A stretch of DNA of 64,000 nucleotides from Candidatus Porifericomitaceae bacterium (GCA_965212005.1 OZ243038.1:1857440-1921439), one strand, 5' to 3'; positions 4,069 to 29,865 are shown, counted from the stretch's first letter. A program made the numbers and translations. The notes: generated by a model from the sequence alone, not told the origin.

Positions 4069-5376
4069 ATGCAGGCTCCTCTAAGCAAGCCCAGCCAAAT
4101 GCTGATTGCAGCGGCAGCGGCCGGCAACCTGGTGGCGGTGCGGGCTGCCCTTTCCGCCGATGCCGACGTGCATGCCGATGACCTTTGGGGATCGGAAGCC
4201 GCGTTGCGTAAGGCGGCGTTTCGCGGCCATACCGCGATCGTATCCTGCCTGATCCAGGCGGGATCGGATGTAAACGTCGAGGATAAGGGAGGGCCGGGCG
4301 CTCCCTTGCGCCGCGCGGTGGAGGGAGGACACGTAGAGGTCGCGAAATTATTGGTCAATGCTGGCGCCGACGTAAATGCCGGTGAGGGAACGATTCTGCG
4401 CACTGCCGCCTGGAATGGACATACGGAGCTGGTTACTTTCCTGATAAAGGTGATGGGCCAGGTAGGCCTGGTCGGACAGGCCGCATTGAACGGAGCTGCC
4501 TGGCAGGGGCACTTGGGCGTGGTATGCATCCTGCTCGCTGCGGGGGTCACTCCCAAGGTGAAAAACACCAACAACATTAAATCTCCCCAGGTTCGCAAGC
4601 TGCTGCAGGAGGCAGTTAAGAAAGCACGGAAAGCCGCCGGTTCCGCCGCGGCTTCCGGGGCCAGGGCCTCCTCCGCGTCGCCCCGGAAAGCCAGGCCTGG
4701 CGGCAAAGCTGCAGTCTCCAGTACCGCCAAGCCTGGTCGGGCAGCGGCCGCCGCCGCCCGATCCAGTGTCCCCGTGGGCTCCGGTGCCCAGAACAATGCC
4801 GCCGTACAGGCATTGACGCGGGAGTCCTTGATCGATCGGTTGCTGAGTGCGGCCAAGGGCGGCTCTGCACAGGACGTGCGCCAGGCACTTGCCGCCGGTG
4901 CCGATATACAGGCGCGCGGCAATGCCGCCTTATTGATGAGTGCCTACCATGGCCACGCCAAGGTAGTGACCACCCTGTTGGGACGCGGGGCAAACGTGCA
5001 CGCCGAGGATCGGTGGGGGCCGGAGGCGGCCCTGCGCAATGCCGCCTATTTCAATCACGTGGAGACAGTGAAGGCGTTGCTTGCCGGCGGCGCCGATCCG
5101 AATGCCCGTGACGGCATGTTGCTGGAGGTCATCGAACTGGGCAACATTGTCATTTTCAAGCTGCTGCTGGAAGCGGGTGCCGACGTGCACGTACCGGACC
5201 TGCAGGGCAAGCCGGACGCCTGTCTTTGCTTTGCCGCCGAGGAAAGTCTCACTGCGCTAACGCGGCTGCTGCTTGTGCATGGAGCGGACCCCCATGCGGT
5301 GGATATCGTTCATGTTCCCAGCAACGAGATCAAAAAGATGCTGAGACAGGCCATACGCAAGCAGGAACAAGCCTGA
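4069..5376 (+). CDS. Ankyrin-repeat protein with a central Ala/Ser/Lys-rich low-complexity linker
   Basis: Repeated 33-aa ankyrin units (GHTAIVSCLIQAGSDVNVED, GGHVEVAKLLVNAGADVNA, GHAKVVTTLLGRGANVHAED and others) on both sides of a KKARKAAGSAAASGARASSASPRKARPGGKAA linker. GAGGGA Shine-Dalgarno before the ATG. Confidence 0.85.
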   Translation: MQAPLSKPSQMLIAAAAAGNLVAVRAALSADADVHADDLWGSEAALRKAAFRGHTAIVSCLIQAGSDVNVEDKGGPGAPLRRAVEGGHVEVAKLLVNAGADVNAGEGTILRTAAWNGHTELVTFLIKVMGQVGLVGQAALNGAAWQGHLGVVCILLAAGVTPKVKNTNNIKSPQVRKLLQEAVKKARKAAGSAAASGARASSASPRKARPGGKAAVSSTAKPGRAAAAAARSSVPVGSGAQNNAAVQALTRESLIDRLLSAAKGGSAQDVRQALAAGADIQARGNAALLMSAYHGHAKVVTTLLGRGANVHAEDRWGPEAALRNAAYFNHVETVKALLAGGADPNARDGMLLEVIELGNIVIFKLLLEAGADVHVPDLQGKPDACLCFAAEESLTALTRLLLVHGADPHAVDIVHVPSNEIKKMLRQAIRKQEQA

Positions 5377-7828: not shown

Positions 7829-7867
7829 CCCCGGGACCATGCCGATTTCGGACCCCCGGGGTTTTTT
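7829..7867 (+). terminator. GC hairpin (CCCCGGG...CCCGGGG) followed by a T6 run. This is an intrinsic-terminator-like element between the promoter and the mod start codon.
   Basis: 7829-7835 ccccggg pairs with 7855-7861 cccgggg. The loop contains the nested hairpin ccgatttcgg. tttttt at 7862-7867. Confidence 0.45.
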
Positions 7868-7926
7868 GTCGTTTCGGCAGGGTTTTATTTTACTATTTCA
7901 TCCAAATGCGATGGCCCTCATAAACC

Positions 7927-9582
7927 ATGCCAACCCTCGATTTCAAAGGCAAACCAATCGTTTACGCCCACCACCTTACCGTACCGTCAAGGCCGCTGGA
8001 GGTGGACGCGAAAAAATCTCTGCCGCCAAAGAGCAAAAAGCCCTCCCTCGACGATAACCTGATCATCCACGGCGACAACCTGCACGCGCTCAAGGCGTTG
8101 ATGCCGCGTTATGCGGGCAAAGTGAACTGCATTTACATTGACCCGCCCTACAACACCGGCAACGAAAAATGGATTTATAACGACAACGTGAACAGCCCGA
8201 TGATGAAGGAATGGCTGAAGGGCAAAAGCCCGGTGGACGGCGAGGATTTGGAGCGCCACGACAAATGGCTGTGCATGATGTGGCCGAGGTTGCAGTTGTT
8301 GAGGGAGTTGCTGGCAGAGGACGGGGTAATTTTTGTTTCTATTGATGATAATGAGCAGCATCGCTTGCGGATGATGATGGATGAGATTTTTGGGGAGGAG
8401 AATTTTATTTCAACTGTTATCTGGCACAAAATGGACAGCCCTAAAAATACAGCAATTCACATAAGCGAAGATCATGAAAGCGTACAGATTTTTGCAAAAA
8501 ATGCTGATATTTGGAGACCTAACAGATTACCAAGAACTGCGGAAATGCTAGCTCGGTATAAAAATCCGGATAATGACACCAGAGGACCGTGGTTGCTCAG
8601 TGATCTAGCTGCCAGAAATCGGTACTCGCGTGGACGCTACCCTATAACGACTCCTTCTGGGAACAGAATTAAAGGACCACCTGCTGGAAGTTTTTGGCGA
8701 GTAAGCAAGGAAAAATTTGATGAACTGGACGCGGATAATCGAATTTGGTGGGGAGAAACTGGTAATAACCGACCCGGGATAAAGCGATTTCTTTCAGAGG
8801 TTCAAGAAGGCGTTGTGCCTCGGTCTCTTTGGGAGTGGAAGGAGGTAGGAAGTACTCGACACTCAAAACAAGAATTGAGTGGAGTTATGTCCGCGCAGGC
8901 CTCCTCGGATATTTTCGTGACACCGAAACCTACGGGACTAATCAAACGTATCCTACAGATCGCATCAGACAAAAGCTCGGTTATCCTGGATTCTTTCGCT
9001 GGCTCTGGCACAACCGCCCATGCCATCCTTGCCCTCAACAAAGAAGACAGCGGCAACCGCAAGTTCATCCTTGTCGAATGCGAAGATAAGATCGCCGACA
9101 AAATCACCGCCGAGCGCGTCCGCCGCGTGATAAAAGGCGTCAAGCAATCAAAAGACGAAAACCTGAAAGCCGGCCTCGGCGGAAGTTTCACCTACTGCAC
9201 CCTGGGCGAAGAAATGAGCATCGAAAAAATGCTCACCGGCAAGAGACTCCCCGACTATGAAACCCTGGCCCGCCACCTTTTCTGGACCGCAACCGGACAA
9301 TCAGTAGACAAAATCCGCAACACAAGAGGCAAAGACGGCTTCTTCCATGAAACGAAAGACAGACTGTTCTACCTGGTTTACGAACCAAAACTTCCTTTCC
9401 TGCGCAGCACCGAATCCGCCCTGAACAGCGACCGCGCCGAACGGGTCGCCAAACAGGCAAAGACAAAAAAGAAAACCGCAGTCGTGTTCGCCACCCACAA
9501 ATTTGTCGGGCAAAAGGAACTAACCCGGATGGGAATAGTATTTTGCGGACTGCCATACGGGACTGCAACCAATCAAGGTTAA
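7927..9582 (+). CDS. mod: Type III restriction-modification DNA methyltransferase (Mod subunit, N6-adenine, beta class)
   Basis: The GDNLHALKAL...VNCIYIDPPYNTGNE motif IV lies near the N-terminus, and the SAM-binding motif I (ILDSFAGSGTTAHA) lies near the C-terminus. This order is typical of Type III Mod proteins (compare EcoP15I Mod). Confidence 0.85.
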   Translation: MPTLDFKGKPIVYAHHLTVPSRPLEVDAKKSLPPKSKKPSLDDNLIIHGDNLHALKALMPRYAGKVNCIYIDPPYNTGNEKWIYNDNVNSPMMKEWLKGKSPVDGEDLERHDKWLCMMWPRLQLLRELLAEDGVIFVSIDDNEQHRLRMMMDEIFGEENFISTVIWHKMDSPKNTAIHISEDHESVQIFAKNADIWRPNRLPRTAEMLARYKNPDNDTRGPWLLSDLAARNRYSRGRYPITTPSGNRIKGPPAGSFWRVSKEKFDELDADNRIWWGETGNNRPGIKRFLSEVQEGVVPRSLWEWKEVGSTRHSKQELSGVMSAQASSDIFVTPKPTGLIKRILQIASDKSSVILDSFAGSGTTAHAILALNKEDSGNRKFILVECEDKIADKITAERVRRVIKGVKQSKDENLKAGLGGSFTYCTLGEEMSIEKMLTGKRLPDYETLARHLFWTATGQSVDKIRNTRGKDGFFHETKDRLFYLVYEPKLPFLRSTESALNSDRAERVAKQAKTKKKTAVVFATHKFVGQKELTRMGIVFCGLPYGTATNQG

Positions 9583-9622
9583 CTCAAATCAACGGCAGCC
9601 ATTCCAACCCCAAAGGTAACCA

Positions 9623-11719
9623 ATGAGCAAAGAAACAGGAAAGCTCGCACAAAGAGCAAAACAGCTTTACGAAGAAGAAAATTGGAACGAATTGATCCCA
9701 GTAGCCACTGAGTGGATTGATTTGGAACAAGAACCGGAAAGGCAAGCACAGGCATACAATGACCGTGGCTTTGCCTACGCCCGAAAAGGCGATTATGACC
9801 ATGCCATTGCAGATTTTGATAAGGCAATAGCATTGGCACCCCGCGATGCGATGGCATACAGCGGGCGTGGCCTTGTCTACGCCGAAAAAGGTGATTATGA
9901 CCGTGCCATTGCAGATTGTGATAAGGCAGTAAGATTGGCACCCCGCGATGCGATAGCATACCGCCGGCGTGGCATGATCTACGCCAAAAAAGGTGATTAT
10001 GACTGTGCCATTGCAGATTTTGATAAGGCAATAGCATTGGCACCCCGCGATGCGCTGGCATATAGCCGGCGTGGCGATGCCTACTACGAAAAAGGCGATT
10101 ACGCCCGTGCTATTGCAGATTTTGATAAGGCAGTAGAATTGGCACCCCGCGATGCGCTGGCATACAGTGGGCGTGGCATGTTCTATGTTCAAACAGGAGA
10201 TTATGCCCGTGCCATTGCAGATTTGGGTAAGGCAATAAAAAGGGATCCTCGCGATGCGATGGCATACCGCTGGCGTGGCATGGCCTACGCCGAAAAAGGC
10301 AATTATGCCCGTGCCATTGCAGATTGTGATAAGGCAATAGAATTGGTTCCCCGCGATGTGATGGCATACAGCTGGCGTGTCAGGTCCTACATCGAAAAAG
10401 GCGATTATGCCCGTGCCATTGCAGATTGTGATAAGGCAATAAAATGGGATCCCTGCGATGCGATGGCATACCGCTGGCGTGTCTTTGTCTACGCCCGAAA
10501 AGGCGATTATGACTGTGCCATTGCAGATCTTAATAAGATAATAAAATTTACTCCCCAGGATGCGATGGCATACCGCTGGCGTGGCATAGCCTACGCCCGA
10601 AAAGGCGATTATGACCAGTCATTTGATGACCTAAACAAAGCGGTAAAACTTGATCCAGCACTACCATTTCGCATTCCAGAAACTTATATCGCAGATCAGA
10701 TAAAAACCATCTTTAAAACTGAGGATAAAACAAAATATGAAGCCTTTAAATTCTATTTTAGATTATCACAAGCAATTAAGGTCTTACAGAAAAAATTGTT
10801 TTATGCGAAAAAAACTGGAGTTGCCCATTACACATCCTTTCATACGATCAAACATCTTGGCCAAAAGGGGCGTTTTCGGCTTTACAACGCAGCCTATATG
10901 AATGACCCGGAAGAAGGGCGTATATTTTCTGAAATAATGAAAGAAGATCATAAGGTAGACGTAAGGAAATTTTATCCAGATAACGAAAACCTGTCTCATC
11001 TCTCTCCGGCCTATATAGGCAGTTTCGTCCAATTGGATTCCAGTGAACGGGATAAACTATTTCTGTGGCGAACGTATGGAAAACATGAGGCGAAGGAAGC
11101 GGCCGGATGCTGCCTGATCTACAGGCAGATGTGCTTTGCAAAAAGCTATCAACCCCAAATCGGCGCCATGCAACAACAACAATTGCAATATGATTCCCTA
11201 TCAACAGCGCAAACAGTAAAGAGTAAAAAACCAGAATCCAGTCGGGACACCAAACCGTGTCTTTATAAAATCATCTATAGGAACACGAAAGACCACAAAA
11301 AGCTCTCCCAAGAATTAAAAAAGCTTGCAGAATGCCTGAATAACATAAAGGATTTTATAGAAGGAATAGAACACAAAGAGGACAACAAAAACATATTAGA
11401 ACTTGCCCGTGCACTGCTTGACAGTATCCGTTTCCTTTTCAAAGGAAGCCATTACAGTGAGGAAAAGGAAGCCCGGGTGTGCAGTATTCGTTATTACAAG
11501 GCAGGTGGGACACAGGAATCGGATGAAATAAAAGTGGACACGGAACAGATTCCGCCACGTTTCTATTTGGATACCCCGGAAGCCTTCCAATTCAGCAAAG
11601 TAATACTCGGCCCGGGAGCACAGAATATCCCGGAATGGGAGCGGTGGTTCAAGGAACAATTTAAGAAGGATGTGGAAGTGCGACACTCCCAAATACCCTA
11701 CGGAACGCGTTCTTCCTAA
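9623..11719 (+). CDS. TPR-repeat protein (about 9 TPR units) with a C-terminal DUF2971-like domain
   Basis: N-terminal 34-aa repeats (GDYDRAIADCDKAIELAPRDAMAYSWRG...). The C-terminal ~350 aa carry the VAHYTSFHTIKHL...RLYNAAYMNDPEEG signature, which I associate with the DUF2971 family. AT-rich codon usage unlike the flanking genome. Confidence 0.6.
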   Translation: MSKETGKLAQRAKQLYEEENWNELIPVATEWIDLEQEPERQAQAYNDRGFAYARKGDYDHAIADFDKAIALAPRDAMAYSGRGLVYAEKGDYDRAIADCDKAVRLAPRDAIAYRRRGMIYAKKGDYDCAIADFDKAIALAPRDALAYSRRGDAYYEKGDYARAIADFDKAVELAPRDALAYSGRGMFYVQTGDYARAIADLGKAIKRDPRDAMAYRWRGMAYAEKGNYARAIADCDKAIELVPRDVMAYSWRVRSYIEKGDYARAIADCDKAIKWDPCDAMAYRWRVFVYARKGDYDCAIADLNKIIKFTPQDAMAYRWRGIAYARKGDYDQSFDDLNKAVKLDPALPFRIPETYIADQIKTIFKTEDKTKYEAFKFYFRLSQAIKVLQKKLFYAKKTGVAHYTSFHTIKHLGQKGRFRLYNAAYMNDPEEGRIFSEIMKEDHKVDVRKFYPDNENLSHLSPAYIGSFVQLDSSERDKLFLWRTYGKHEAKEAAGCCLIYRQMCFAKSYQPQIGAMQQQQLQYDSLSTAQTVKSKKPESSRDTKPCLYKIIYRNTKDHKKLSQELKKLAECLNNIKDFIEGIEHKEDNKNILELARALLDSIRFLFKGSHYSEEKEARVCSIRYYKAGGTQESDEIKVDTEQIPPRFYLDTPEAFQFSKVILGPGAQNIPEWERWFKEQFKKDVEVRHSQIPYGTRSS

Positions 11720-11753
11720 TCCCACTCAAAGCCCGCCAACAAACCACAGCGAA

Positions 11754-11850
11754 CGGCGGTCGTGTCTACCACCCACAAGTTTAGGGGGCAGAAGGAACGG
11801 ACGGAGAGGGGAGTAGTATTTTGCGAATTGAGACCCTTTTCACTACAATG
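11754..11850 (+). repeat. Diverged duplicate of the mod 3' terminus (last ~30 codons), located after the TPR/DUF2971 gene
   Basis: 11757-11832 (cggtcgtgtctaccacccacaagtttagggggcagaaggaac...gtagtattttgcg) aligns at about 70-75% identity with mod 9476-9560 (cagtcgtgttcgccacccacaaatttgtcgggcaaaaggaac...atagtattttgcg). The translation AVVSTTHKFRGQKERTERGVVFCELRPF compares with Mod AVVFATHKFVGQKELTRMGIVFCGLPYG. Confidence 0.8.
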
Positions 11851-11855
11851 AAGTA

Positions 11856-12962
11856 GTGGCAATGACTCCCTTCTCTCCATCGCACTGGGCTGCTTCCTGT
11901 ACACACCAGGAATGCTCATTACACCAGCTATCGCCATATATAGGAAAGCTAAAGAGCACGATCGCTCAAGACTTGATTCTGAAATACAGTAAACCAGGTG
12001 AGTTAGTAGTTGATGCGTTCTGTGGCAGCGGGACCGTACCATTAGAAGCTGCCCGCCTGGGGCGCAGAGTATTTGCCTCTGATACGAGTAGATATGCCGT
12101 CACACTAACTAAAGGGAAACTTAAGGCGCCAAACACAGCTAATGCTGCGCTTGCCTCTCTTGATAGTGTTTTGAAACACAGAAAGTCCCTGCCTACACCG
12201 GATATCAGGTATGTTCCTCGTTGGGTTAGAGCCTTCTTTCACCCCCACACACTCAAAGAAACGTTGCAATTTACAAGGTATCTCAAGCAGGAGCGTCAAT
12301 ATTTTCTGCTGGCATCTTTACTTGGCATTTTACATCATGAGCGTCCTGGGTTTCTATCGTTTCCAAGTAGTCACCTTGTTCCTTATCTTCGATCAAAAAA
12401 ATATCCCAGGGCAAGCTATCCTGCTCTTTATAACTATCGTCCACTGATTCCGCGCTTGACGGCAAAAATAAACCGAGCATTAAAACGACCGCCAAAAGAA
12501 GAATTGACCAAGTGGGTTGAAGGCATACGCCAGTCCTCTGTTGGATCTGTCAATTTGCCTAACTCTATTGACTGTGTTATTACAAGTCCACCCTATATGA
12601 ATGCGCTTGACTACGGGCGTGATAACCGTCTTAGGCTCTGGTTTTTGGGAGAATATGATATAGAATCATTAGATCGTCCCCTTGGGACTATTCAAGGTTT
12701 TACGCATGCAATAACGTCACTTGCCAAACAATTACAGCAAAAAGTGCGAGTGGGTGGCTATTGTATTTTTGTTATCGGCGAAAAATTGATAAGAAAGAAA
12801 GACAGGCTCCCTTCTGAAGAGTTAATGGAAATTTTTACAGTTCATGCGCCGGCAATTAGACTATGTAATATTATTAGTGACGTGATTCCTGATATTCGTC
12901 GCTCCCGCAGATATATTGCTGGAGTGAAGCAGGAAAATATTCTTGTATTTAGAAAATACTAA
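11856..12962 (+). CDS. DNA methyltransferase (N4-cytosine or N6-adenine, SPPY type)
   Basis: Motif I (ELVVDAFCGSGTVPLEAARLGRRVFASD) near the N-terminus and motif IV (ITSPPYMNALDYG) near the C-terminus. An SPPY motif is more typical of N4C methyltransferases. Start is GTG at 11856 or ATG at 11862. Confidence 0.75.
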   Translation: MAMTPFSPSHWAASCTHQECSLHQLSPYIGKLKSTIAQDLILKYSKPGELVVDAFCGSGTVPLEAARLGRRVFASDTSRYAVTLTKGKLKAPNTANAALASLDSVLKHRKSLPTPDIRYVPRWVRAFFHPHTLKETLQFTRYLKQERQYFLLASLLGILHHERPGFLSFPSSHLVPYLRSKKYPRASYPALYNYRPLIPRLTAKINRALKRPPKEELTKWVEGIRQSSVGSVNLPNSIDCVITSPPYMNALDYGRDNRLRLWFLGEYDIESLDRPLGTIQGFTHAITSLAKQLQQKVRVGGYCIFVIGEKLIRKKDRLPSEELMEIFTVHAPAIRLCNIISDVIPDIRRSRRYIAGVKQENILVFRKY

Positions 12963-12964
12963 TC

Positions 12965-15400
12965 ATGCGTAGAAATATTCCAGAGAAAACACAGTTTCTT
13001 GGAAAGAAGATAGATCGATTCCCTGACCATGAAATCAAAACGCATATTGCTACAGGGAACAATGGACATCTATTTCTTGCGTTTAATGAATCAACAAAAA
13101 GCAAACTTGCATTCAAAATTATTCCTGTCGATAATCTACTCAATGGATATTTAAATGAGGCAAAAAAACCTAACTCTTTAGAAAATCCATCCGTTGTTAA
13201 ATGCCATGATGTTGTTAAATATCCTGATTCAAAATTAAATTGCATAGTGTTCATATATGACTACGTTGAAGGTGAAAATCTTAGGGATTATATGAAGGAA
13301 AAACGATCAAATATAGATATACCATTCATTGAGAATTTTTTGAAAACCATGTTTGGATTATTATATGAACTTGATAGACGTGAATCTCAGCATGGTGATT
13401 TGCATCCTGGCAATATACTTGTTGCACACTCTGCATATGATTTATCAAGAAAAAAAACCTTCCGTGTGACAGATTTTGGTGTCGGAGAGTTAATTGGACA
13501 GGATGCTCATGCGAATGACTACCTGAATGTTGCAAACACGCTCAGGAAATTACTGGGTTGTGTAAAATATGGTGAGTGCGAGGGGCGGGACAGATATATT
13601 TACAATATTCTTAAGAATGATTTTTTGGGTAGGCACCTATTTGAAACAGACACTAGCGCAGACCCCTTGGCTTGCAACCCTTGGGGGCTGAACAACAAAC
13701 TAGAAAAATTGGATGCAGAGTGGAGAGACCAAAAACAGCCGGATCAAGATAAGCTTGAAACACCTTTTGATTATCCCAATTGTGAGCAAATTGGAAACTC
13801 TCATTTATTGCTTAAAAGTCTTTACTCAGACCGACTCCTTGGCTTATCTGAAATTCAGGAAAAAGCCAACCTCATGCTAACTGGACCTCGCGGATGCGGA
13901 AAGACAACGGTCTTTCGCGCTCTGAGTCTGGAATATTTGATTTCAACTCATGAGAGCAGTCCATCTGACTTGAAGTATATTGGCATCTATTACAGATGTG
14001 ACTACCTATACTTCTCCTTTCCTAGATATAAGCATCCCGAACGTACCGAGGCATTGGATATCCCCATGCATTTTCTTATTGTTACGCTGTTAGCGGCTAC
14101 ACTGGAGCAAATAGGTGCATGGGCAAAAGAATATTTCTCAGATCAATTAGCAAAGGAAGAGGAAGCTCTTGTTTCGGAACTGTGGAACATTTTTGAATGG
14201 GATGCCCCAGATGCTCCGAGCGGCAATCAATTGACTACTTTGGTCAATAGACTAAGAAAAGAAAGCAAGCGTGCCGTAAATAAACAACAGGTTGCTCATG
14301 TCGCAGCCGAACCTATCCAAGGCTATTTTGGCCCGGGAATTATGTTGCAAGCCTGTGCTTTTATTAGAAAAAAATTTACTTGTTTAGAAAATCGTCCTTT
14401 TTACTTCTTTATAGACGATTATTCTGCCCCAAAGATTACCAAAGAGTTGCAGGCAAATCTTAATCGATTAGTGATGCATCGCAGTCCAGATGTTTTTTTT
14501 AAACTCTCGACGGAAAGTCCTGTCTCTTTTGTGCGATATGATATTGATGGTAAGCAATTTGTTGAAAAGCGCGAATACGTTTTGTTAAATCTTGGATTAA
14601 GATATATTAAAGATGATTCAAATGATACTTTGGCTTTTCTTGAAGATCTTTTTAAGCGCCGATTTGCAGAGGTCTCAGGCTATCCTGTCGAAACACTTGA
14701 AGAGCTTTTAGGATCAAGACCACGCAATGAGAATGATACGGCTCGTGCCTTCCTAGATAAAGAAAAAAGGAATTATTATGCTGGACAAGATACAGTCGCT
14801 GCTATGTGTAGCGGTGATATTCACTATATGATTCGTCTTGTTGCCAGAATGGTAGAAGAAAATGGGGGTAAAGAAAGTCTCACGGATTGCGACACAATAC
14901 CTAAAATTTCAATGGAAAAGCAAAATGAATCAATTCGTGCTGCAGCAGGCGACTTCATGGAATCAATACGCACATTGCCTAAGACAGGCCCAATACTAAC
15001 AGAGGTTATAACTGCATTTGGAAATGTAGCACATTCTTATCTTATGCATGCAGTATCAAGAAATGAAGGAAAGGAAAATCCTCACCAGGCATCAAGGATA
15101 GAACCGTACGAAGGGTTGAATCTTTCTACTGAAGCGGAAGATATTCTTGAAGAGCTACTGCGTTACTCGGTACTCATTGAAGATCCTCGTGGAAAGAGCC
15201 GCAGAGGTGAGGTTGTCTCGAGATTTTACCTGCGACGTTACATAATCCCACATTTCCGCTTAACATTTAGTAAACGAGATTCCATTCAATTGGAAAATAG
15301 CCAGATTGAAATGCTCTTGCGTGACCCTAAAAAATTCAAAAACAGGATGATGTTGAAATTGAAAAGACATTTCAGTCAAAAGGATCTGTTTGAGTTATGA
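12965..15400 (+). CDS. Eukaryotic-like Ser/Thr protein kinase domain fused to a C-terminal P-loop NTPase (811 aa)
   Basis: Kinase subdomains in order: Gly-rich loop (IATGNNGHLFLAF), the lysine (LAFKII), the HGDLHPGNILV catalytic loop and the DFG motif (VTDFGVGE). These are followed by Walker A (LTGPRGCGKTT) and Walker B (FYFFIDDYS). AT-rich. Confidence 0.7.
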   Translation: MRRNIPEKTQFLGKKIDRFPDHEIKTHIATGNNGHLFLAFNESTKSKLAFKIIPVDNLLNGYLNEAKKPNSLENPSVVKCHDVVKYPDSKLNCIVFIYDYVEGENLRDYMKEKRSNIDIPFIENFLKTMFGLLYELDRRESQHGDLHPGNILVAHSAYDLSRKKTFRVTDFGVGELIGQDAHANDYLNVANTLRKLLGCVKYGECEGRDRYIYNILKNDFLGRHLFETDTSADPLACNPWGLNNKLEKLDAEWRDQKQPDQDKLETPFDYPNCEQIGNSHLLLKSLYSDRLLGLSEIQEKANLMLTGPRGCGKTTVFRALSLEYLISTHESSPSDLKYIGIYYRCDYLYFSFPRYKHPERTEALDIPMHFLIVTLLAATLEQIGAWAKEYFSDQLAKEEEALVSELWNIFEWDAPDAPSGNQLTTLVNRLRKESKRAVNKQQVAHVAAEPIQGYFGPGIMLQACAFIRKKFTCLENRPFYFFIDDYSAPKITKELQANLNRLVMHRSPDVFFKLSTESPVSFVRYDIDGKQFVEKREYVLLNLGLRYIKDDSNDTLAFLEDLFKRRFAEVSGYPVETLEELLGSRPRNENDTARAFLDKEKRNYYAGQDTVAAMCSGDIHYMIRLVARMVEENGGKESLTDCDTIPKISMEKQNESIRAAAGDFMESIRTLPKTGPILTEVITAFGNVAHSYLMHAVSRNEGKENPHQASRIEPYEGLNLSTEAEDILEELLRYSVLIEDPRGKSRRGEVVSRFYLRRYIIPHFRLTFSKRDSIQLENSQIEMLLRDPKKFKNRMMLKLKRHFSQKDLFEL

Positions 15401-16437
15401 ATGATACCTTATTGAAGGCAGATGAACAGTTACTTGTTATGGACTGGCCCAGTCTGCAAAAGATTGATGTACCTTCACTCAAGGCCAGTGACTTATATTT
15501 AGTATGTGTGGGCTTTGAAGATCGGGCTATAGAAACACTTCATCGAATCTGTGAGGCTGGAAGCAGGGAATTTTCGCTTGTTCTAGTGAACTATCGTCCA
15601 GAATATAAAGAGAATAGAAGAGAAGAGATTCTTGAAATCGCACGGCGGGCGGATTTGACAGTGCACGAGATTGTTTATGACCGAGAGAACCCGGCAGGTA
15701 TTGGAAAAGAGCTAGACTTCTCAGCAGATCGGATATTTGTGGATATTTCTGGCATGTCGCGTCTTCTCATAGTCCAAGTCTTGGTAGCACTAATCGGCAT
15801 TCAGGAACGGGCAATAAATATAATTTATGGTGAAGCAGCAGAATATTTCCCTTCTAAAGAACAATTCGAACGAGATCAGGCAAATGATGACAACAATTTG
15901 GAACATAGCTATCTATCTTCCGGGATTTTTGAAATAGCAATAGCGCCCGAATTAAGTTCTGTATCTATGTTAGGTGAAGCAATTAGATTGATAGCATTTC
16001 CATCACTTGATCATGTGCAACTCACCAATGTAATGCAAGAATTGCAACCTACTTATGCAGAATTTATTGATGGCATACCACCTGATGAAGGTAATGAATG
16101 GCGAACGGAAGCAATTCGAATAATTAATCATAGGACTATTAGTGCAGTTAAAAACCCTGTAACTCATCAAGCATCTACACTTGATTATAGAAAGACGTTA
16201 AAAATTTTGCTAGATATATACGAAGAGCGCAGCATGTTTGACCGACTTGTAATTGCGCCAACTGGCAGCAAAATGCAGGCTGTTGCCGTTGGTTTATTGA
16301 GATCTTTTCTTGACGATGTGCAAATTGTTTATCCAACGCCACATATTTTTACACACCCCAAGAGATATACATCTGGACTAAGTCAAATATATGAAGTCCA
16401 TATTCCATCTAAAGAAATACTTGCAAAATTAAAGTGA
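15397..16437 (+). CDS. Hypothetical protein with a Rossmann-like fold and possible CARF/SLOG-like sensor motifs. Translationally coupled to the kinase gene.
   Basis: ATGA overlap with the upstream stop. Beta-strand/Gly patterns (LYLVCVGFEDR, FVDISGMSRLLIV, LVIAPTGSKMQAV) are reminiscent of CARF D-I-T-G-G-x-K signatures. The assignment is speculative. Confidence 0.35.
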   Translation: MNDTLLKADEQLLVMDWPSLQKIDVPSLKASDLYLVCVGFEDRAIETLHRICEAGSREFSLVLVNYRPEYKENRREEILEIARRADLTVHEIVYDRENPAGIGKELDFSADRIFVDISGMSRLLIVQVLVALIGIQERAINIIYGEAAEYFPSKEQFERDQANDDNNLEHSYLSSGIFEIAIAPELSSVSMLGEAIRLIAFPSLDHVQLTNVMQELQPTYAEFIDGIPPDEGNEWRTEAIRIINHRTISAVKNPVTHQASTLDYRKTLKILLDIYEERSMFDRLVIAPTGSKMQAVAVGLLRSFLDDVQIVYPTPHIFTHPKRYTSGLSQIYEVHIPSKEILAKLK

Positions 16438-16502
16438 CTGCAGCAACCGGTAATAATGACAGTCATTTTTAAGGGAAGGAAATTGAGGTGGAAACAAAAT
16501 AA

Positions 16503-19049
16503 ATGCAACTCAAAACCTACCAACAAAAGGCCCTTGAACAATTAGACCGCTATCTTGAGGCGCTCAAAGAAGAGCGTCTGAAAAGTGAAAAAGCGGCGAC
16601 ATTTTTTGCGGAGCAGAACAGTGACGCTCCTGAAGACCTGAAAAATTATCCGCGCGCCGCATGGCAAACTCTGACGAAACAGGGCGTTCTCCCCAGCGTT
16701 GCAACGGGTCGAAATACCGAAATCCCCGACCCTATCCCCCGCACTGCAACCTCCGGCGACCCCATCCCCCACGTCTGCCTGAAAGTGCCCACCGGTGGCG
16801 GCAAGACGCTGCTGGGCGTCGCCGCCCTGGAACGTATCCAGCGGGACCCGGGCTTTGTGCTGTGGATTGTGCCGACCAGGGCGATTTACGAGCAGACTAT
16901 CATGGCTTTCCGAACCCGTGAACATCTCTACCGGCAGATGCTGGAGCAGATTTCCGGCGGCAAGGTGAAGCTGCTGCAGAAAACCGACCGCTTCACCCGG
17001 CAGGATACTGAAAACTACCTGTGCGTGATGATGCTGATGCTGCCGTCCGCCAACCGGCAGAGAGGAAAGGATTTCCTCAAGATATTCCGCGACAGCGGCA
17101 ATTACCCTTCTTTCTTTCCTGAACAGGACGACTTCGCCGCCAACCGGAAATTTGCCGAGAGGCATCCCGACCTTGAGCAAAACGAAACCGACGATTGGGC
17201 CAAACAAAGCCTTATCAATGTACTCAAACAGGTCCGCCTCACCGTGATTCTGGATGAGGCGCACAAGGCGTATGGACAAAATGACGCGAACAACAAGGAG
17301 TTTGTAAAGTCCGTCAACCGCCTGAATCCCCACTTTGTACTCGAACTTTCCGCCACGCCGAAAATCGGCATCAGTAATATCCTGGTTAACATATCGGGGA
17401 CCGAACTGTATGACGAGGAGATGATCAAACTGCCCATTGAGATTCACAGTTTCAGTAATTCCGACTGGCAGTATGCGCTTGCCCAAACCCAGGCGAAGTT
17501 AAGCCAACTGGAAAAAGAGGCGCGGCAACTAAAACAAAGAGAAAATCGCTATATTCGCCCTATCGCCCTGGTGCGGGTGCAGCGAACCGGCAAAGGGCAA
17601 AGAGAGCGGGGATACATTCATGCCGAGGATGCGCGGGAACATTTGATACAAAACCTTGCCGTGCCGGAAAATCAGATCCGGATTCAATCATCGGAACAAA
17701 AGGAACTCGAGGGTGAGGATTTGTTGAGTGAGGCCAGTCCCGTCCGCTGGATTATTACCAAAGACGCCCTGAAGGAGGGCTGGGACTGCTCGTTTGCCTA
17801 CGTGCTGGCGTTGCTGGACAACACCACGGCCACAACCGCCATGACGCAGATGGTCGGGCGGGTGATGCGGCAGCCCCATGCGCGCCGGATCGGGAACAGC
17901 AAGCCGCTGAACCAATGCTATATCTACTGCTATAACCAGGACGTGGGCAACGCGATTAAAAGTGTGAAAGCCGGCCTGGACAGAGGGGGACTGACGGGGC
18001 TTGGGGATGCCATTCTCGGCTACGGCGACGGTGAGGACGATGCGCCGAAGCCGATAACCGTGAAACGCCGGGGAAGATATAAGCGGTTGAACATCTTTCT
18101 TCCGCAGGTCTTGCACATACAGGGGAAAAAGTGGCGTCCCATTGATTACGACCGCGATATTCTGGGCGCGGTGGACTGGGGCAAGATTAACGGCGGTGGA
18201 GCGACCAATCTGGACGACAAAGACGTCATTCAGGAAATCAAGGCCACGGTTGATATTCAGGGGGAAAGTGATGTTTCCCAGAAAACGCTTGATACCGGGG
18301 AAAGTGTGACCCTGGATTATTTTGTCCGGCGGCTTACCGACATGCTTCCGAATCCGTGGCAGGCGGCGCGCGTGGCGGAGCGCTTTCTGAAACGGCACAA
18401 GGACAAAAAGCACGATGATGCGCAATTGCTGATCAACCGGATTTATCTTTCGGAAGTGCTAAGGCGCAGGGTGAAAACGGCCATTGACGGCAAGGCCGAG
18501 TCGGTGTTCCGGGGCAAGGTGCAGCAGAACCAAATCCGGTTTCATCTGGAAACCGATGAGCGGCTGGATTACGAACTGAACAGGTCGTTTGAGGTTTTTG
18601 TTTCCAGCAGAGAAAGGCGACTTCATGGTCCGCACAAGCCGATACAGCAGAGCCTTTTTTCTCCGGTTTACGAAAGCAGCTTTAACGATCTGGAAAAGGA
18701 CTTTGCGCTTTATCTGGACACGGATCAGGCAATCTATTGGTGGCACAGAATCGCTGCACGGCAGGCGTATTCCCTTCAGGGTTGGCGGCGGCATCGAGTG
18801 TATCCCGATTTTGTAGCCTGCCGGAAAAACGATGGAAAGCTGTTGATCCTGGAAACAAAAGGCATTCACCTGAAAGGCAACGAGGACACCGATTACAAGC
18901 AAAAATTACTGGAGATGCTGGAGAAAACGTATGAAACCGCCCTTGAAAGAGGCCAGTTCAAAGTACGGGAGCCGCCCGCCCAATTCAGGATGATGTTTGA
19001 GGATACATGGCCGGAGGACATGAACGAACTCCTCCAGGAAGGCAATTAG
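16503..19049 (+). CDS. res: Type III restriction endonuclease (Res subunit, SF2 helicase-like)
   Basis: Helicase motif I (LKVPTGGGKT), motif II DEAH-like (VILDEAHKAYG), and a QxxGRxxR-like motif (MTQMVGRVMRQP). The size (848 aa) and the position next to mod fit Res. Confidence 0.8.
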   Translation: MQLKTYQQKALEQLDRYLEALKEERLKSEKAATFFAEQNSDAPEDLKNYPRAAWQTLTKQGVLPSVATGRNTEIPDPIPRTATSGDPIPHVCLKVPTGGGKTLLGVAALERIQRDPGFVLWIVPTRAIYEQTIMAFRTREHLYRQMLEQISGGKVKLLQKTDRFTRQDTENYLCVMMLMLPSANRQRGKDFLKIFRDSGNYPSFFPEQDDFAANRKFAERHPDLEQNETDDWAKQSLINVLKQVRLTVILDEAHKAYGQNDANNKEFVKSVNRLNPHFVLELSATPKIGISNILVNISGTELYDEEMIKLPIEIHSFSNSDWQYALAQTQAKLSQLEKEARQLKQRENRYIRPIALVRVQRTGKGQRERGYIHAEDAREHLIQNLAVPENQIRIQSSEQKELEGEDLLSEASPVRWIITKDALKEGWDCSFAYVLALLDNTTATTAMTQMVGRVMRQPHARRIGNSKPLNQCYIYCYNQDVGNAIKSVKAGLDRGGLTGLGDAILGYGDGEDDAPKPITVKRRGRYKRLNIFLPQVLHIQGKKWRPIDYDRDILGAVDWGKINGGGATNLDDKDVIQEIKATVDIQGESDVSQKTLDTGESVTLDYFVRRLTDMLPNPWQAARVAERFLKRHKDKKHDDAQLLINRIYLSEVLRRRVKTAIDGKAESVFRGKVQQNQIRFHLETDERLDYELNRSFEVFVSSRERRLHGPHKPIQQSLFSPVYESSFNDLEKDFALYLDTDQAIYWWHRIAARQAYSLQGWRRHRVYPDFVACRKNDGKLLILETKGIHLKGNEDTDYKQKLLEMLEKTYETALERGQFKVREPPAQFRMMFEDTWPEDMNELLQEGN

Positions 19050-19189
19050 CGTATTTTTTAGGAGGCACGTATCAGGGATCATCTGCGCAGTCCAGCCTGC
19101 TGCTCCTGCCCCAGCGGGGCTTTTTGAGCATTGCCGGGGCGCACAGGTTGAGATTTCAAAAGCCATCGCCTATATTTCAGGGACCACCA

Positions 19190-21463
19190 ATGTCAACCCC
19201 TCCGAAAAAATCAACTAAGTCTATAAAAACCATTGGCGAATTCCTTGACTGGACAGGGAAACAGGAAGGCTCTTTGTTTCTCTATCGCGGAGTGTCTGCT
19301 CCCTACATGGAAATGGAAGCATCGGCATATCGCAGAATAAAGGAGAACCAGGAGGAAGATACGGTTCCTTCAAAAATATTTATCAATTATCACGAGCGAC
19401 TTCTGGATAGAGCCAGATTGGAGGGATTTGACGATCAACAGGGCAAGGATCCTTCCGACCTGGAATTACTTGCCAGGTTACAGCACTATGGCGCGGCAAC
19501 ATGCCTGATTGATTTTACCGCAGACCCTTTGATCGCATTGTGGTTTGCTTGCCAGGGAAGCGGGCAGACAAATGGAAAAGTCGTTGCCATGGCAACGGGT
19601 GATGTCCAAGACTTCGCCGCAGTGAAACACGAAGACTTGAAGAAGCCTGTCAAGGAATTCCTCAAGGAGGAAACACTGTGGAAATGGTCTCCTCGGCGCC
19701 AAAACAATCGCATTATTGCCCAGAAGTCAACGTTTATATTCGGAAAAAGTACGATCCAGGAGAGTTGCTACAAGACTGTCAAGATAGACAAAGAAAGCAA
19801 AGGAAACATTATTAATGAATTGTGGAATAGATTTGAAGTTACTGAGCAGTCCCTTTTTGGCGATTTTGTCGGTTTCTCTCTTGCCAATGCCCACGACAAA
19901 CCTTACAGCGACTATAACTCAGAAGACTATTTTATTTTTGGACTAACCTGCAGTCAGAGAAAAGAGTATCAGAAAGCGATAGATTATTACGACAAGGCGA
20001 TAGCGATTAACCCTGAATATACCGAGGCATATCACAATCGTGGTCATGCAAAGGATGCCTTGAGAAAGTATAAAGGAGCGATATCGGATTATGACAAGGC
20101 GATAGCCATTAATCCTAAATTGGCCGAGGCATATAACAATCGCGGCAATGCAAAGGATGCCATGGGCGAGCATAAAGGAGCGATAGCGGATTATGACAAA
20201 GCGATAGCCATTAATCCTAAATTGGCCGAGGCATATCACAATCGTGGCCATGCAAAGGATGCCATGGGCGAGCATAAAGGAGCGATAGCGTATTATGATA
20301 AGGCGATAGCCATTAACTCTCAATATGTCGAGGCATATACCAATCGCGGAGCTGCAAAGGATGCCTTGGGTGATCATCAAGGAGCGATAGCGGATTACGA
20401 CAAGGCGATAGCCATTAACCCTGAATATGCCGATGCATATAACAATCGCGGCAATGCAAAGAATGTCTTGGGCGAGCATAAAGGAGCGATGGTGGATTAT
20501 GGCAAGGCGATAGACATTAATCCTAAATATGCCGATGCATATTATAATCGCGGCAATGTAATGTATGCCTTGAGCGATCATCAAGGAGCGATAGCGGATT
20601 ATGACGAGGCGATAGCCATTAACTCTCAATATGCCGAGGCATATACCAATCGCGGCCATGCAAAGTATTCTCTGGGTGATCCTCAAGGAGCGATAGCGGA
20701 TTATGACAAGGCGATAGTCATTAATCCTAAATCGGCCGAGGCATATAACAATCGCGGAAATGCAAAGAATGTCTTGGGCGACCATGAAGGAGCGATAGCG
20801 GATTATGGCAATGCGATAGCCATTAATCCTCAATATGCCGAGGCATATAACAATCGCGGCAATACAAAGGGTGCCATGGGTGACCCTCAAGGGGCGATAG
20901 CGGATTATGACAAGGCGATAGTCATTAATCCTAAATTGGCCGAGGTATATAACAATCGCGGAAATGCAAAGAATGTCTTGGGCGACCATGAAGGAGCGAT
21001 AGTGGATTATGACAATGCGATAGCCATTAATCCTCAATATGCCGAGGTATATACCAATCGCGGCAATGCAAAGGGTGCCTTGGGCGACCCTCAAGGGGCG
21101 ATGGCGGATCATGATAAGGCGATAGCCATTAATTCTGAATTGGCCATGGCATATAACAATCGCGGCAATGTAAAGAATGTCTTGGGCGACCATGAAGGAG
21201 CGATGGCGGATTATGACAAGGCGATAGCCATTAATCCCCAATTGGCCATGGCATATAACAATCGCGGCAATGCAAAGAATGTCCTGGGCGACCGTGAAGG
21301 AGCGATAGCGGATTATGACAAGGCGATAGCCATTAATCCTGAATTTGCCATGGCATATAAAAATCGCGGCGATGCAAAGAAAGCCCTGGGCGACCGTGAA
21401 GGAGCGATGGCGGATTATGACCAGGCAATCGCCATTGACCCATCAATACGCCGAGGCATATAA
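19190..21463 (+). CDS. FRG-domain protein fused to a long TPR array (about 16 units)
   Basis: Start at the ATG 19190 (MSTPPKK...). The N-terminal 250 aa carry FLYRGVSAPY and LARLQHYGAATCLIDFTADPLIALWFAC, resembling the FRG-domain signature (FRGQ / QHYGLPTRLLDWT). The rest is 34-aa TPRs (AIADYDKAIAINPKLAEAYNNRGNAKDAMGEHKG). The C-terminus AIAIDPSIRRGI is shared with the downstream family. Confidence 0.7.
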   Translation: MSTPPKKSTKSIKTIGEFLDWTGKQEGSLFLYRGVSAPYMEMEASAYRRIKENQEEDTVPSKIFINYHERLLDRARLEGFDDQQGKDPSDLELLARLQHYGAATCLIDFTADPLIALWFACQGSGQTNGKVVAMATGDVQDFAAVKHEDLKKPVKEFLKEETLWKWSPRRQNNRIIAQKSTFIFGKSTIQESCYKTVKIDKESKGNIINELWNRFEVTEQSLFGDFVGFSLANAHDKPYSDYNSEDYFIFGLTCSQRKEYQKAIDYYDKAIAINPEYTEAYHNRGHAKDALRKYKGAISDYDKAIAINPKLAEAYNNRGNAKDAMGEHKGAIADYDKAIAINPKLAEAYHNRGHAKDAMGEHKGAIAYYDKAIAINSQYVEAYTNRGAAKDALGDHQGAIADYDKAIAINPEYADAYNNRGNAKNVLGEHKGAMVDYGKAIDINPKYADAYYNRGNVMYALSDHQGAIADYDEAIAINSQYAEAYTNRGHAKYSLGDPQGAIADYDKAIVINPKSAEAYNNRGNAKNVLGDHEGAIADYGNAIAINPQYAEAYNNRGNTKGAMGDPQGAIADYDKAIVINPKLAEVYNNRGNAKNVLGDHEGAIVDYDNAIAINPQYAEVYTNRGNAKGALGDPQGAMADHDKAIAINSELAMAYNNRGNVKNVLGDHEGAMADYDKAIAINPQLAMAYNNRGNAKNVLGDREGAIADYDKAIAINPEFAMAYKNRGDAKKALGDREGAMADYDQAIAIDPSIRRGI

Positions 21464-21940
21464 CAATCGCGGCGATGCAAAGAATGCCCTGGGCTACATA
21501 CAGACGGTATCCGCAGGGGAAACAGCAGGTGATGGCTGAAACGAGGGTTCCGTAGGGTAGGCCGGGACGGGTGCACTCCTATCGGACGGGCCCGGGGAGC
21601 CCCGGCGGAAAAGCGGGCAGGTGGTCATGGCCCTCAAAGAGCCAGTGCGACCTGTGCTGGCAGAACGAAACCACTGCTCTGTAACGAAGCTGAGCTGTCG
21701 ACAGCTGCGGGACTGCGCCAGGGCCCGTGCCGGCACCAGCTTACGCACTATACTTTGCTTGTTTTTGGGGGTATCTTTAAGGTTAAGCAGCGGGAAGAGG
21801 AGGCCGTCCGTAGTGGCAGCCATCTTGTTGACTGCATGGTAAAAAAAGCTTTGCGTAACGCCAGGAACGGGGTTTGCAGGCACGTCAGGCAAGAAGGCAA
21901 AGCAGGGGAGGAGCATACCCCTGCCCAAAGGAGTATCGCG
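21464..21940 (+). repeat. Conserved intergenic leader, copy 1 of 5
   Basis: About 470 bp, near-identical to 24305-24778, 27572-28045, 29327-29865 and 31198-31678. It ends with AAAGGAG-N7-GTG. Confidence 0.9.
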
Positions 21941-24304: not shown

Positions 24305-24778
24305 CCATCGCGACTATGCAGCCCCCTGGTCTACGATAAGACAGTATCCGCAGGGGAAACAGCAGGTGATGCCTGAAACGAGGGTTCCGTAGGGTAGGCC
24401 GGGACGGGCACACTCCTATCGGACGGCCCCGGGGAGGCCCGGCGGAAAAGCGGGCAGATGCCAGGGTCCTCAAAGAGCCAGTGCAATCTGTGTCGGCAGA
24501 ACGAAACCACTGCTCTGCAACGAAGCTGAGCCGCCGACAGCTGCGGGACTGGCACCAGGGCCCGTGCAGGCGCTGCTTACGCACTATACCTTGCTTGTTT
24601 TTTGGGGTATCTTTCAAGGTCAACGCAGCGGGAAGAGGAGGCCGTCCGTAGTGGTCGCCATCTTGTTGACTGCATGGTAAAAAAGCTTTGCGTAACGCCA
24701 GGAACGGGGTTTGCAGGCACGTCAGGCAAGAAGGACAAGCAGGGGAGGGAGCATACCCCTGCCCAAAGGAGTGCCGCA
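24305..24778 (+). repeat. Conserved intergenic leader, copy 2 of 5
   Basis: Near-identical to the other four copies. Confidence 0.9.
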
Positions 24779-27571: not shown

Positions 27572-28045
27572 CCATCGCGGTTATGCAGCCCCCTGATCTA
27601 CGATAAGACAGTATCCACAGGGGAAACGGCAGGGGATGCCTGAAACGAGGGTTCCGTAGGGTAGGCTGAGCCGGGCGCACTCCTATCGGACGGCCTCGGG
27701 GAGGCCCGGCGGAAAAGCGGGCAGATGCCGGGGTCCTCAAAGAGCCAGTGCAATCTGTGTCGGCAGAACGAAACCACTGCTCTGCAACGAAGCTGAGCCG
27801 CCGACAGCTGCGGGACTGGCACCAGGGCCCGTGCAGGCGCTGCTTACGCACTATACCTTGCTTGTTTTTTGGGGTATCTTTCAAGGTCAACGCAGCGGGA
27901 AGAGGAGGCCGCCCGTAGTGGCCGCCATCTTGTTGACTGCATGGTAAAAAAGCTTTGCGTAATGCCAGGAACGGGGTTTGCAGGCAGGTCAGGCAAGAAG
28001 GCAAAGCAGGGAAGGGAGCATACCCCTGCCCAAAGGAGTGTCGCG
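27572..28045 (+). repeat. Conserved intergenic leader, copy 3 of 5
   Basis: Near-identical to the other four copies. Confidence 0.9.
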
Positions 28046-29326: not shown

Positions 29327-29865
29327 CGGCAATGCAAAGAAAGCCCCCTGGTCTACGATAAGACAGTATCCGCGGGGGAAACGGCGGGGATGCCTGCAAC
29401 GAGGGTTCCGTAGGGTAGGCTGAGCCGGGCGCACTCCTATCGGACGGACCTCGGGGATGCCCTGCGGAAAAGCGGGCAGATGCCAGAGCCTCAAAAGAGC
29501 CGGTGCGATCGGTGCCGGCAGAACGAAACCACTGCTCTGCAACGAAGCTAAGCCGTCGGCAGCTGCGGGACTGGCACAAGGGCTCGCGCCGGTGCCAGTT
29601 TGCGTACTATACTTTTCTTGTTTTTTTGAGGTATCTTTAAGGTAAGTGACTGTTATATTGGAGGAAGATATTACTATACTTTGCTTGTTTTTGAGGGTAT
29701 CTTTAAGTTTAAGCAGTGGGAAGAGGAGGCCGCCCGTAGTGGCCGCCATCTTGTTGACTGCATGGTAAAAAAGCTTTGCGTAATGCCAGGAACGGGGTTT
29801 GCAGGCACGTCAGGCCAGAAGGCAAAGCAGGGGAGGAGCATACCCCTGCCCAAAGGAGTGCCGCG
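29327..29865 (+). repeat. Conserved intergenic leader, copy 4 of 5 (contains an internal ~65-bp duplication)
   Basis: The module ctatacttt(g/t)cttgttttt...gtatctttaag occurs twice (29608-29650 and 29677-29720), separated by an AT-rich spacer. Confidence 0.9.

Follow-up and report, generated by a model that had tools for sequence, protein, structure and literature searches.

A putative CARF-gated kinase/ATPase defence module nested between mod and res of a Type III restriction-modification locus

To our knowledge, nearly all that is known of CARF sensors concerns the reception of cyclic oligoadenylates made by Cas10. A small protein family that combines a Zn ribbon, a Ser/Thr/Tyr kinase, an AAA+ ATPase whose P-loop contains an arginine finger, a CARF domain and a wHTH (winged helix-turn-helix) has been described computationally, and CARF-mediated kinase signalling was proposed for it (Makarova et al., 2014; PMC4012209). 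Kinase and ATPase activities are also part of the Pgl system, which requires the methyltransferase PglX, the kinase PglW and the ATPase PglY (PMC4365076), and PglW itself is a kinase joined to an ORC/Cdc6-like domain (PMC4365076; PMC12839542). The DUF499-centred systems related to BREX (BR type 1, with MANTIS as the related BR type 2) are methylation-based restriction systems (PMC12839542; bioRxiv 10.64898/2026.09.23.753747). Here we describe a locus of a Candidatus Porifericomitaceae bacterium (GCA_965212005.1, OZ243038.1:1857440-1921439), in which mod and res, the two genes of a Type III restriction-modification (R-M) system, are separated by four other genes. The whole analysed stretch of 64,000 nt is called the window, and all coordinates without a prefix are window positions. 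Three of the four genes, which encode the methyltransferase MT2, a fusion of a kinase with an AAA+ ATPase (kinase-ATPase) and a tandem-CARF protein, recur together in many genomes, and we consider it rather probable that they are an autonomous CARF-gated kinase/ATPase defence module which was captured in the R-M operon. The fourth gene codes for a TPR-repeat protein and has a history of its own.

Relatives of the kinase-ATPase were collected by a degenerate-pattern scan with one genome per species, which resulted in 80 loci from many bacterial phyla and 14 archaeal genomes, and the open reading frames (ORFs) of their flanks (up to ±10 kb) were compared with the window proteins and clustered all-against-all. 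The CARF gene follows the kinase-ATPase gene in 78 of these loci and MT2 precedes it in 69, in identical order and on the same strand, and no further gene is conserved around the three within the flanks analysed. MT2, the kinase-ATPase and the CARF protein form a conserved operon or module. Co-occurrence elsewhere, which the preliminary description of this DNA had suggested as a check, holds for these three, in about 69 of the 80 genomes, but not for the TPR-DUF2971 gene. Among the hosts are cultured organisms, namely Bradyrhizobium (on a plasmid), Citreicoccus inhibens, Natrinema zhouii and Halosimplex aquaticum. The plasmid NZ_CP088025 of Bradyrhizobium quebecense (locus L088) carries the methyltransferase gene, a split kinase, the ATPase, the CARF gene and thyX, and its kinase, ATPase and CARF genes are labelled "hypothetical protein" in RefSeq. 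A search of 72,556 plasmids gave one match, which is distant, and no match to the module was found in phage records. In 62 of 69 loci the module has a GC content below that of the flanking DNA, the median difference being -9 points. A profile search with the CARF protein against 1.84 billion representatives retrieved 856 clusters (50% identity) at E≤1e-3, 191 of them at E≤1e-30. The family is real and moderately large.

Several loci deviate from this arrangement. In the deepest clade DruA (PF14236, 6e-89) replaces MT2 (L072, L074, L075, L078, L079, L080), and DruA and MT2 are present together in L024. A similar alternation of DruA and a methylase is found among the Druantia subtypes. The flavin-dependent thymidylate synthase ThyX (PF02511, 1e-49) is encoded directly beside the module in 14 of the 80 loci (L013, L024, L025, L030, L034, L039, L041, L045, L056, L060, L064, L066, L069, L073) and may be an optional fourth component tied to nucleotide metabolism. 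In the plasmid locus L088 (NZ_CP088025.1 70761-73456) the thyX gene is at L088:9905-10828, and a separate ORF of 246 amino acids (aa) lies between MT2 and an ATPase of 652 aa; this ORF, outside the tblastn match, is presumably the kinase. The kinase/ATPase junction is split into separate ORFs also in several loci from metagenome-assembled genomes (MAGs), which may be due to assembly frameshifts. The closest relatives of the module were found in sponge-associated MAGs of Nitrospirales, Poribacteria, Binatia and Latescibacterota.

In the window, positions 9583-16502 are exactly the gap between the 3' end of mod and the start of res, 6,920 bp with four genes on the plus strand, and every long ORF between 7.3 and 19.1 kb is located on this strand. 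The preliminary description had already placed four genes between a Type III mod and res, with interval coordinates that proved to be exact, and had assigned all four products correctly (TPR/DUF2971-like, SPPY methyltransferase, kinase-P-loop, CARF-like). The features of the locus are as follows:

7844-7882, plus strand: terminator-like hairpins upstream of mod, from a consensus scan; possible left boundary of the transcription unit
7927-9582, plus strand: Mod, Type III R-M methyltransferase, intact; PADLOC and Pfam matches
9623-11719, plus strand: TPR-repeat protein with a C-terminal DUF2971-like domain (TPR_1 5e-63), read as a window-specific insertion
11737-11832, plus strand: degenerate duplicate of the mod 3' end, from an alignment to 9470-9555
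11821-11849, plus strand: promoter-like site TTGCGA-17-TACAAT before MT2, on the mod-end duplicate, from a consensus scan
11862-12962 (ORF opens with GTG at 11856), plus strand: MT2 amino-methyltransferase; PF01555 and UPF0020 matches, motifs DAFCGSG and SPPY
12965-15400, plus strand: fusion of a Hanks-type kinase and an ORC/Cdc6-like AAA+ ATPase; Pkinase and PF24389 matches
15397-16437, plus strand: tandem-CARF sensor protein of 346 aa with two Rossmann-like halves, without an effector domain
16503-19049, plus strand: Res, Type III R-M restriction subunit, intact; PADLOC REase_III 1e-208
19100-19128, plus strand: terminator-like hairpin GCCCCAGCGGGGC with a T run just after res, a consensus match; possible right boundary

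The genes of the module are tightly packed. Only 2 nt separate the stop codon of MT2 from the ATG of the kinase gene, and the kinase and CARF genes are translationally coupled by an ATGA overlap at 15397-15400, which had been noticed before. Also in agreement with the preliminary description, the four inner genes are more AT-rich than their surroundings of about 62% GC: the GC content is 0.457 for the TPR gene, 0.437 for MT2, 0.390 for the kinase gene and 0.393 for the CARF gene, compared to 0.638 and 0.605 for the chromosome on the left and right side, respectively. However, Mod (0.50) and Res (0.54) are under the genome GC, too, and the island of lower GC is the entire stretch from 7.5 to 31.2 kb, which is broader than the four inner genes. 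In the consensus scan, terminator-like hairpins bracket only the whole mod-to-res unit, with none inside. Since the counts of promoter- and terminator-like sites are not above those of shuffled sequences, the boundaries of the operon are tentative.

The kinase-ATPase consists of a Hanks-type kinase (aa 1-260) and an ORC/Cdc6-like AAA+ ATPase (aa 290-700), the latter matching PF24389 (ORC-CDC6-like) with 3e-53 and carrying the Walker A motif GPRGCGKT and the Walker B motif DD. Across 67 full-length members, K51, E65, D145, N150 and D170 as well as Walker A and the Walker B Asp are invariant or nearly so. Because of its conserved arginines and the secondary structure predicted by AlphaFold2, the Arg-rich α/β region at the C-terminus may be a winged helix. 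The CARF protein resembles Can1 in its fold across both domains, with a sequence identity of 10-16% to Can1, Card1 and Can2. The CARF superfamily is defined by a Rossmann-like fold in which the loops that follow strands 1 and 4 are conserved; the protein has this fold, and both halves retain these loops at the expected ligand-facing positions. MT2 is a protein of about 366 aa, for which the ATG at 11862 is a likelier start than the GTG that opens the ORF. Its motif I (DAFCGSG, residue 53) precedes motif IV (SPPY, residue 244), and SPPY is kept in 68 of 70 orthologues. MT2 matches PF01555 (8e-11) and UPF0020 (RNA m2G-type, 2e-10), and its nearest solved relatives in the PDB are N4-cytosine DNA methyltransferases, at 3e-5 only. 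Unlike in Mod, the conservation profile of the MT2 orthologues contains no hypervariable target-recognition domain (TRD), and the idea that MT2 is a diversifying self-marking methylase was rejected as unsupported for this reason.

The fourth gene, at 9623-11719, codes for a protein with about eight TPR units. Its C-terminal domain matches DUF2971 (PF11185) with E=0.013 and 17.2 bits, which is below the cutoff of 22 bits; relatives with the same architecture are numerous, and PF11185 is recorded on several full-length ones that are 40-50% identical. According to blastn and locus comparison, the stretch 9583-11750 has no counterpart in L003, L011, L012 and L017, and the TPR gene has none in L001 either. 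A homologue of the TPR gene beside the module was found in none of the 80 loci; the sole match, an ORF of L079, lies on the minus strand at a distance of about 8 kb. Directly after the gene, at 11737-11832, the final ~85 nt of mod occur a second time in degenerate form (compare 9470-9555), and the part 11752-11825 of this copy is 75.7% identical to the 3' end of mod in L017 (blastn). Because the related loci have no counterpart and the mod 3' end is duplicated, the TPR-DUF2971 gene is, as judged from sequence comparison, a secondary insertion at the junction of mod and MT2, and 11737-11832 is its scar. A unit of four genes was rejected on the same grounds, and the single four-gene cassette of the preliminary description has to be given up in favour of a conserved MT2-kinase/ATPase-CARF module plus a later insertion. 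The TPR units of this gene lie outside the DNA family of the 102-nt repeat array found further downstream (19850-31200). The mod/MT2 junction is a recurrent insertion site in three loci, the window, L003 and L087: in L003 it holds an insertion sequence (IS)-like gene (L003:7429-8220, with a second copy at L003:4133-4924) and in L087 a gene for a HicB-like antitoxin (L087:5484-5693).

The R-M genes on both sides encode complete proteins. Along its entire length Mod matches the PADLOC model MTase_III (2e-179 and 2e-169), its residues 66-392 match PF01555 (3e-39), and by profiles and variable region it is a Type III Mod, i.e., a β-class N6-adenine methyltransferase whose TRD is central; it shares 61-72% identity with Mod of L001, L003, L011, L012 and L017. 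Its target-recognition region is variable (about aa 150-330, ~nt 8405-8983), with TRD blocks of 0.28-0.56 identity, and on the DNA level this central region cannot be aligned with relatives that are 72-83% identical elsewhere. Such a pattern marks a swapped TRD, which would imply a separate Type III specificity in each genome. Res matches the PADLOC model REase_III (1e-208) with its residues 1-840 on model positions 1-878 of 883, carries ResIII and DEAD domains (Pfam), and is by this profile coverage a full-length Type III Res with a superfamily 2 (SF2) helicase-like ATPase and an endonuclease; it is 70-73% identical to Res of the related loci. The locus therefore resembles an EcoP15I-like mod-res operon in its full-length Mod and Res, encoded on one strand, and in the variable TRD of Mod. 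It differs in that mod is not next to res in one operon, as is typical for Type III systems, but 6.9 kb away with four genes between.

The same nesting of the module between Mod and Res was found in at least eight genomes or contigs beyond the window (L003, L011, L012, L017, L081/L082, L083, L087), and L001 is a rearranged version of it. The window genes for Mod, the module and Res are colinear with those of L003, L011, L012 and L017, MAGs of Nitrospirales, Nitrospira and Binatia, with 68-82% nucleotide identity, and all five proteins (Mod, MT2, kinase-ATPase, CARF protein, Res) are similarly diverged, with 61-74% identity to the related loci. Since the DNA is colinear and the five proteins diverge to a similar degree, the data fit an ancestral Mod-MT2-kinase/ATPase-CARF-Res block that would have been inherited or transferred as one. 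In L081 (11850-12686 of that locus) and L082 (6344-7180) a gene for a CBS-domain protein of 278 aa stands between the CARF gene and res.

A second restriction context was observed in sister lineages. In L002, L006, L085 and L086 the module lies between a gene for an SNF2/NOV_C helicase and one for a DUF1156 methylase, with a DUF499 gene further on, and in L015, L018, L031 and L032 a DUF1156 methylase gene directly follows the CARF gene, the helicase gene being elsewhere or not seen. In a neighbour-joining tree of the kinase-ATPase the Type III and the BREX-related contexts are intermixed, so that two different restriction systems have been combined with one and the same module. Other neighbours of the module are Type I R-M, MmeI-like Type IIG, GmrSD, a methyltransferase-HNH protein and AAA-PDDEXK_9 proteins. 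In many loci the module stands alone between genes of the opposite strand, and Type III R-M is absent near it in most of the 80 loci. The defence-like association of the genes that was proposed from the window is supported, as the neighbourhoods are consistently of this kind. However, the proposed arm layered on restriction does not hold in general; with Mod and Res missing from most loci, it could at best be specific for one clade.

Restriction neighbours of many kinds, low GC and the plasmid copy as signs of mobility, and the intact active sites are the reasons why the MT2-kinase/ATPase-CARF module probably acts in defence, a role that rests on genomic association. In our preferred reading the interval between mod and res would be two things, a mobile three-gene module, most likely a self-contained system against phages or other mobile genetic elements, and the TPR-DUF2971 gene as a later arrival between mod and MT2. 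The double-CARF protein would bind a nucleotide-type signal that arises on infection and thereby control the AAA+/kinase protein, which probably sits on DNA via its ORC/Cdc6-like part. ATP-dependent activation of the kinase would then lead to phosphorylation of host, phage or partner proteins and finally to growth arrest or restriction. MT2 could either be the source of a fixed, non-diversifying methyl mark or a regulated output. This scheme is modelled on Pgl, in which no nuclease takes part and the work is shared by a methyltransferase, a kinase and an ATPase. Nesting in the Type III operon would result in co-transcription and co-transfer, and a direct coupling to Mod and Res would be possible, but is not required. 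Several points weigh against a defence module of this kind. MT2 has no variable TRD, unlike the self-marking methylases of R-M and BREX systems, and the module contains neither a nuclease nor an obvious toxic effector. No cyclase or other signal generator and no cas gene was found among the scanned proteins of the 64-kb window, and none of these is recurrent beside the module in the 80 loci. The predicted model of the ATPase is of moderate confidence (predicted local distance difference test, pLDDT, 74.6; predicted template modelling score, pTM, 0.42), and its matches to solved structures are confined to the P-loop. In addition, a search limited to open-access text retrieved no experimental paper that names or tests the module.

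The nesting itself could be taken to mean that restriction systems made up of a methyltransferase and an SF2 helicase-type motor, Type III R-M in the window and the DUF1156/DUF499/SNF2 systems in relatives, use the module as a signalling plug-in, which either licenses or boosts restriction or acts as a guard that fires when a phage disables the R-M system of the host by anti-restriction. In the clade of the window the module does lie in operons of this type, sharing their strand and leaving short gaps, the tree intermixes Type III and DUF1156 contexts, the five genes diverge similarly and the terminator-like hairpins enclose only the whole unit. However, most loci have no R-M gene on either side and often flanks on the opposite strand, and the GmrSD, MmeI-like and methyltransferase-HNH neighbours elsewhere fit the general clustering of defence islands. 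Moreover, the mod/MT2 junction tolerates insertions, namely the TPR gene here, an IS in L003 and a HicB-like gene in L087, and a promoter-like site is located ahead of MT2, so that we regard such a coupled composite as unlikely. An even further-reaching version, which we consider rather unlikely, is CARF-dependent immune signalling without CRISPR or CBASS, with the module as a portable second arm or guard for methyltransferase plus helicase restriction systems. Here, the tandem-CARF protein would read a nucleotide signal derived from the phage or arising during restriction and switch on the DNA-bound AAA+/kinase protein, and MT2, DruA and ThyX would be interchangeable partners for modification or nucleotide metabolism.

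A role outside defence is very unlikely in our view, although several properties of the module would agree with it. It could serve a mobile element as a cassette for maintenance, addiction or epigenetic control, in which the CARF protein senses a metabolic nucleotide and the ORC/Cdc6-like ATPase, the kinase and the methyltransferase regulate replication or gene expression. The class of the ATPase, the lack of a nuclease and the fixed, non-diversifying specificity of MT2 would suit such a cassette, as would the plasmid copy adjoining thyX and a recombinase, the presence of ThyX, an enzyme of nucleotide metabolism, next to the module in 14 loci, and the low GC that marks the module as mobile DNA. 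Nevertheless, its neighbours are overwhelmingly restriction and defence genes and not genes for replication or conjugation, there is no phage match and one plasmid match among 72,556, the window copy is chromosomal, surrounded by housekeeping genes and with neither an integrase nor a tRNA gene close to it, and CARF proteins are otherwise known from immune signalling. Finally, it is extremely improbable that the module is a divergent member of a named kinase system, i.e., BREX type 2/Pgl, MADS or a single-gene kinase such as Stk2 or PD-T4-6. It has the same enzyme trio as Pgl, and there are weak PADLOC matches of the kinase domain to mad6 (9e-15), PD-T4-6 (2e-12) and MkoA, of MT2 to mad2 (9e-7) and PglX (1e-6), and of the P-loop to mad8 (2e-4). 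However, these matches cover only the generic cores of kinase, methyltransferase and P-loop, neither PglZ, BrxC/PglY nor other MADS genes are present at the locus or in the 80 loci, and none of these systems is known to have a CARF protein.

Across hundreds of bacterial and archaeal lineages, a conserved double-CARF protein is linked here with a kinase-AAA+ ATPase and a methyltransferase, and no cyclase accompanies them. If the proposed defence role is true, the module adds a kinase-based, CARF-gated mechanism and raises the question of the CARF ligand. The repeated nesting in two different methylation-based restriction operons is also a tangible example on which to study how defence modules come together and are transferred jointly.

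Further away from the locus, the window contains housekeeping genes on both sides, for RecR, DnaX, an ankyrin protein, a squalene-synthase-like protein and PgpA on the left and for HtpG, a class I (Trp/Tyr-type) tRNA synthetase, FtsH and a phosphoglucomutase-family protein on the right. No tRNA genes were found in the window and no integrase near the locus. The window has many TPR genes, an ankyrin-repeat protein gene at 4069-5376 and a sulfatase gene at 43886-45691; taken with the sponge-associated MAGs that carry the closest relatives of the module, these genes may point to a sponge symbiont as the source of the DNA. Directly after res, an ORF at 19007-21463 encodes a protein in which about 15 TPR units are joined to an FRG domain; the FRG part matches the PADLOC candidate single-gene system PDC-S15 (1e-27) and Pfam FRG (7e-16); its real start is probably located after the terminator-like hairpin (19108-19120). 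The region 19850-31200 comprises five consecutive TPR genes with about 70 copies of a 102-nt (34-aa) unit, which are mostly 75-87% identical at the DNA level, an unusually homogeneous array to extend across several genes.

In PADLOC 2.0, NCBIfam and Pfam no named system matches the module, for which these collections gave generic or CARF6 matches only. The view that the gene set matches no named defence system thus stands with respect to PADLOC 2.0 and NCBIfam, but has to be corrected with respect to the architecture, which is found in the literature (PMC4012209) and as CARF6 in PADLOC. Among the described systems, MADS differs clearly, as the NCBIfam model MADS6 is matched with 31 bits versus a cutoff of 460 and no other mad genes are present, and so does Druantia, which is defined by DruA together with DruB-E or DruE, whereas the window lacks DruA. 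The BREX-related systems centred on DUF499 house the same module in close relatives, but their helicase, DUF1156 and DUF499 genes are all absent from the window. With the CRISPR ancillary effectors Can1, Card1 and Can2 the window CARF protein shares the Can1-type tandem-CARF fold; however, it has no nuclease or other effector domain, and the scanned window proteins include no type III CRISPR, Cas10 or other cyclase, nor is one conserved next to the module. The likeness to Pgl/BREX type 2 is an amino-methyltransferase, a Ser/Thr kinase and an ATPase of the ORC/Cdc6 class with no dedicated nuclease. In contrast to Pgl, the module lacks PglZ and the large BrxC-type ATPase, for which no match was obtained among the proteins of 7927-29326 (Pfam, PADLOC) and which are not recurrent in the 80 loci, MT2 has only about 366 aa and no variable TRD, a CARF sensor is present and the kinase is fused to an ATPase whose Walker motifs are intact. 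Sequence similarity to Pgl is confined to the catalytic cores, the match of MT2 to PglX extending over 48 residues. The closest described relative is the STK-AAA-CARF family (CARF6), with which the window proteins share the kinase, the AAA+ ATPase with Arg in the P-loop (GPRGCGKT) and the CARF domain. The PADLOC model PDLC01925 "CARF6--CARF_STK_AAA" matches both proteins (1e-28 and 4e-14), and the two align consecutively on its 1187 positions, the ATPase region on 329-734 and the CARF protein on 875-1183. The window form differs in being split into two overlapping genes, in the lack of a Zn ribbon at the N-terminus, the kinase protein having no Cys among its first 60 aa, and in the C-terminal part of the CARF protein, which is a second CARF-like half and not a wHTH. 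Based on these alignments, the kinase-ATPase and the CARF protein of the window are a split form of the STK-AAA-CARF family, to which the 80 loci add the conserved partner MT2 and DruA and ThyX as alternatives.

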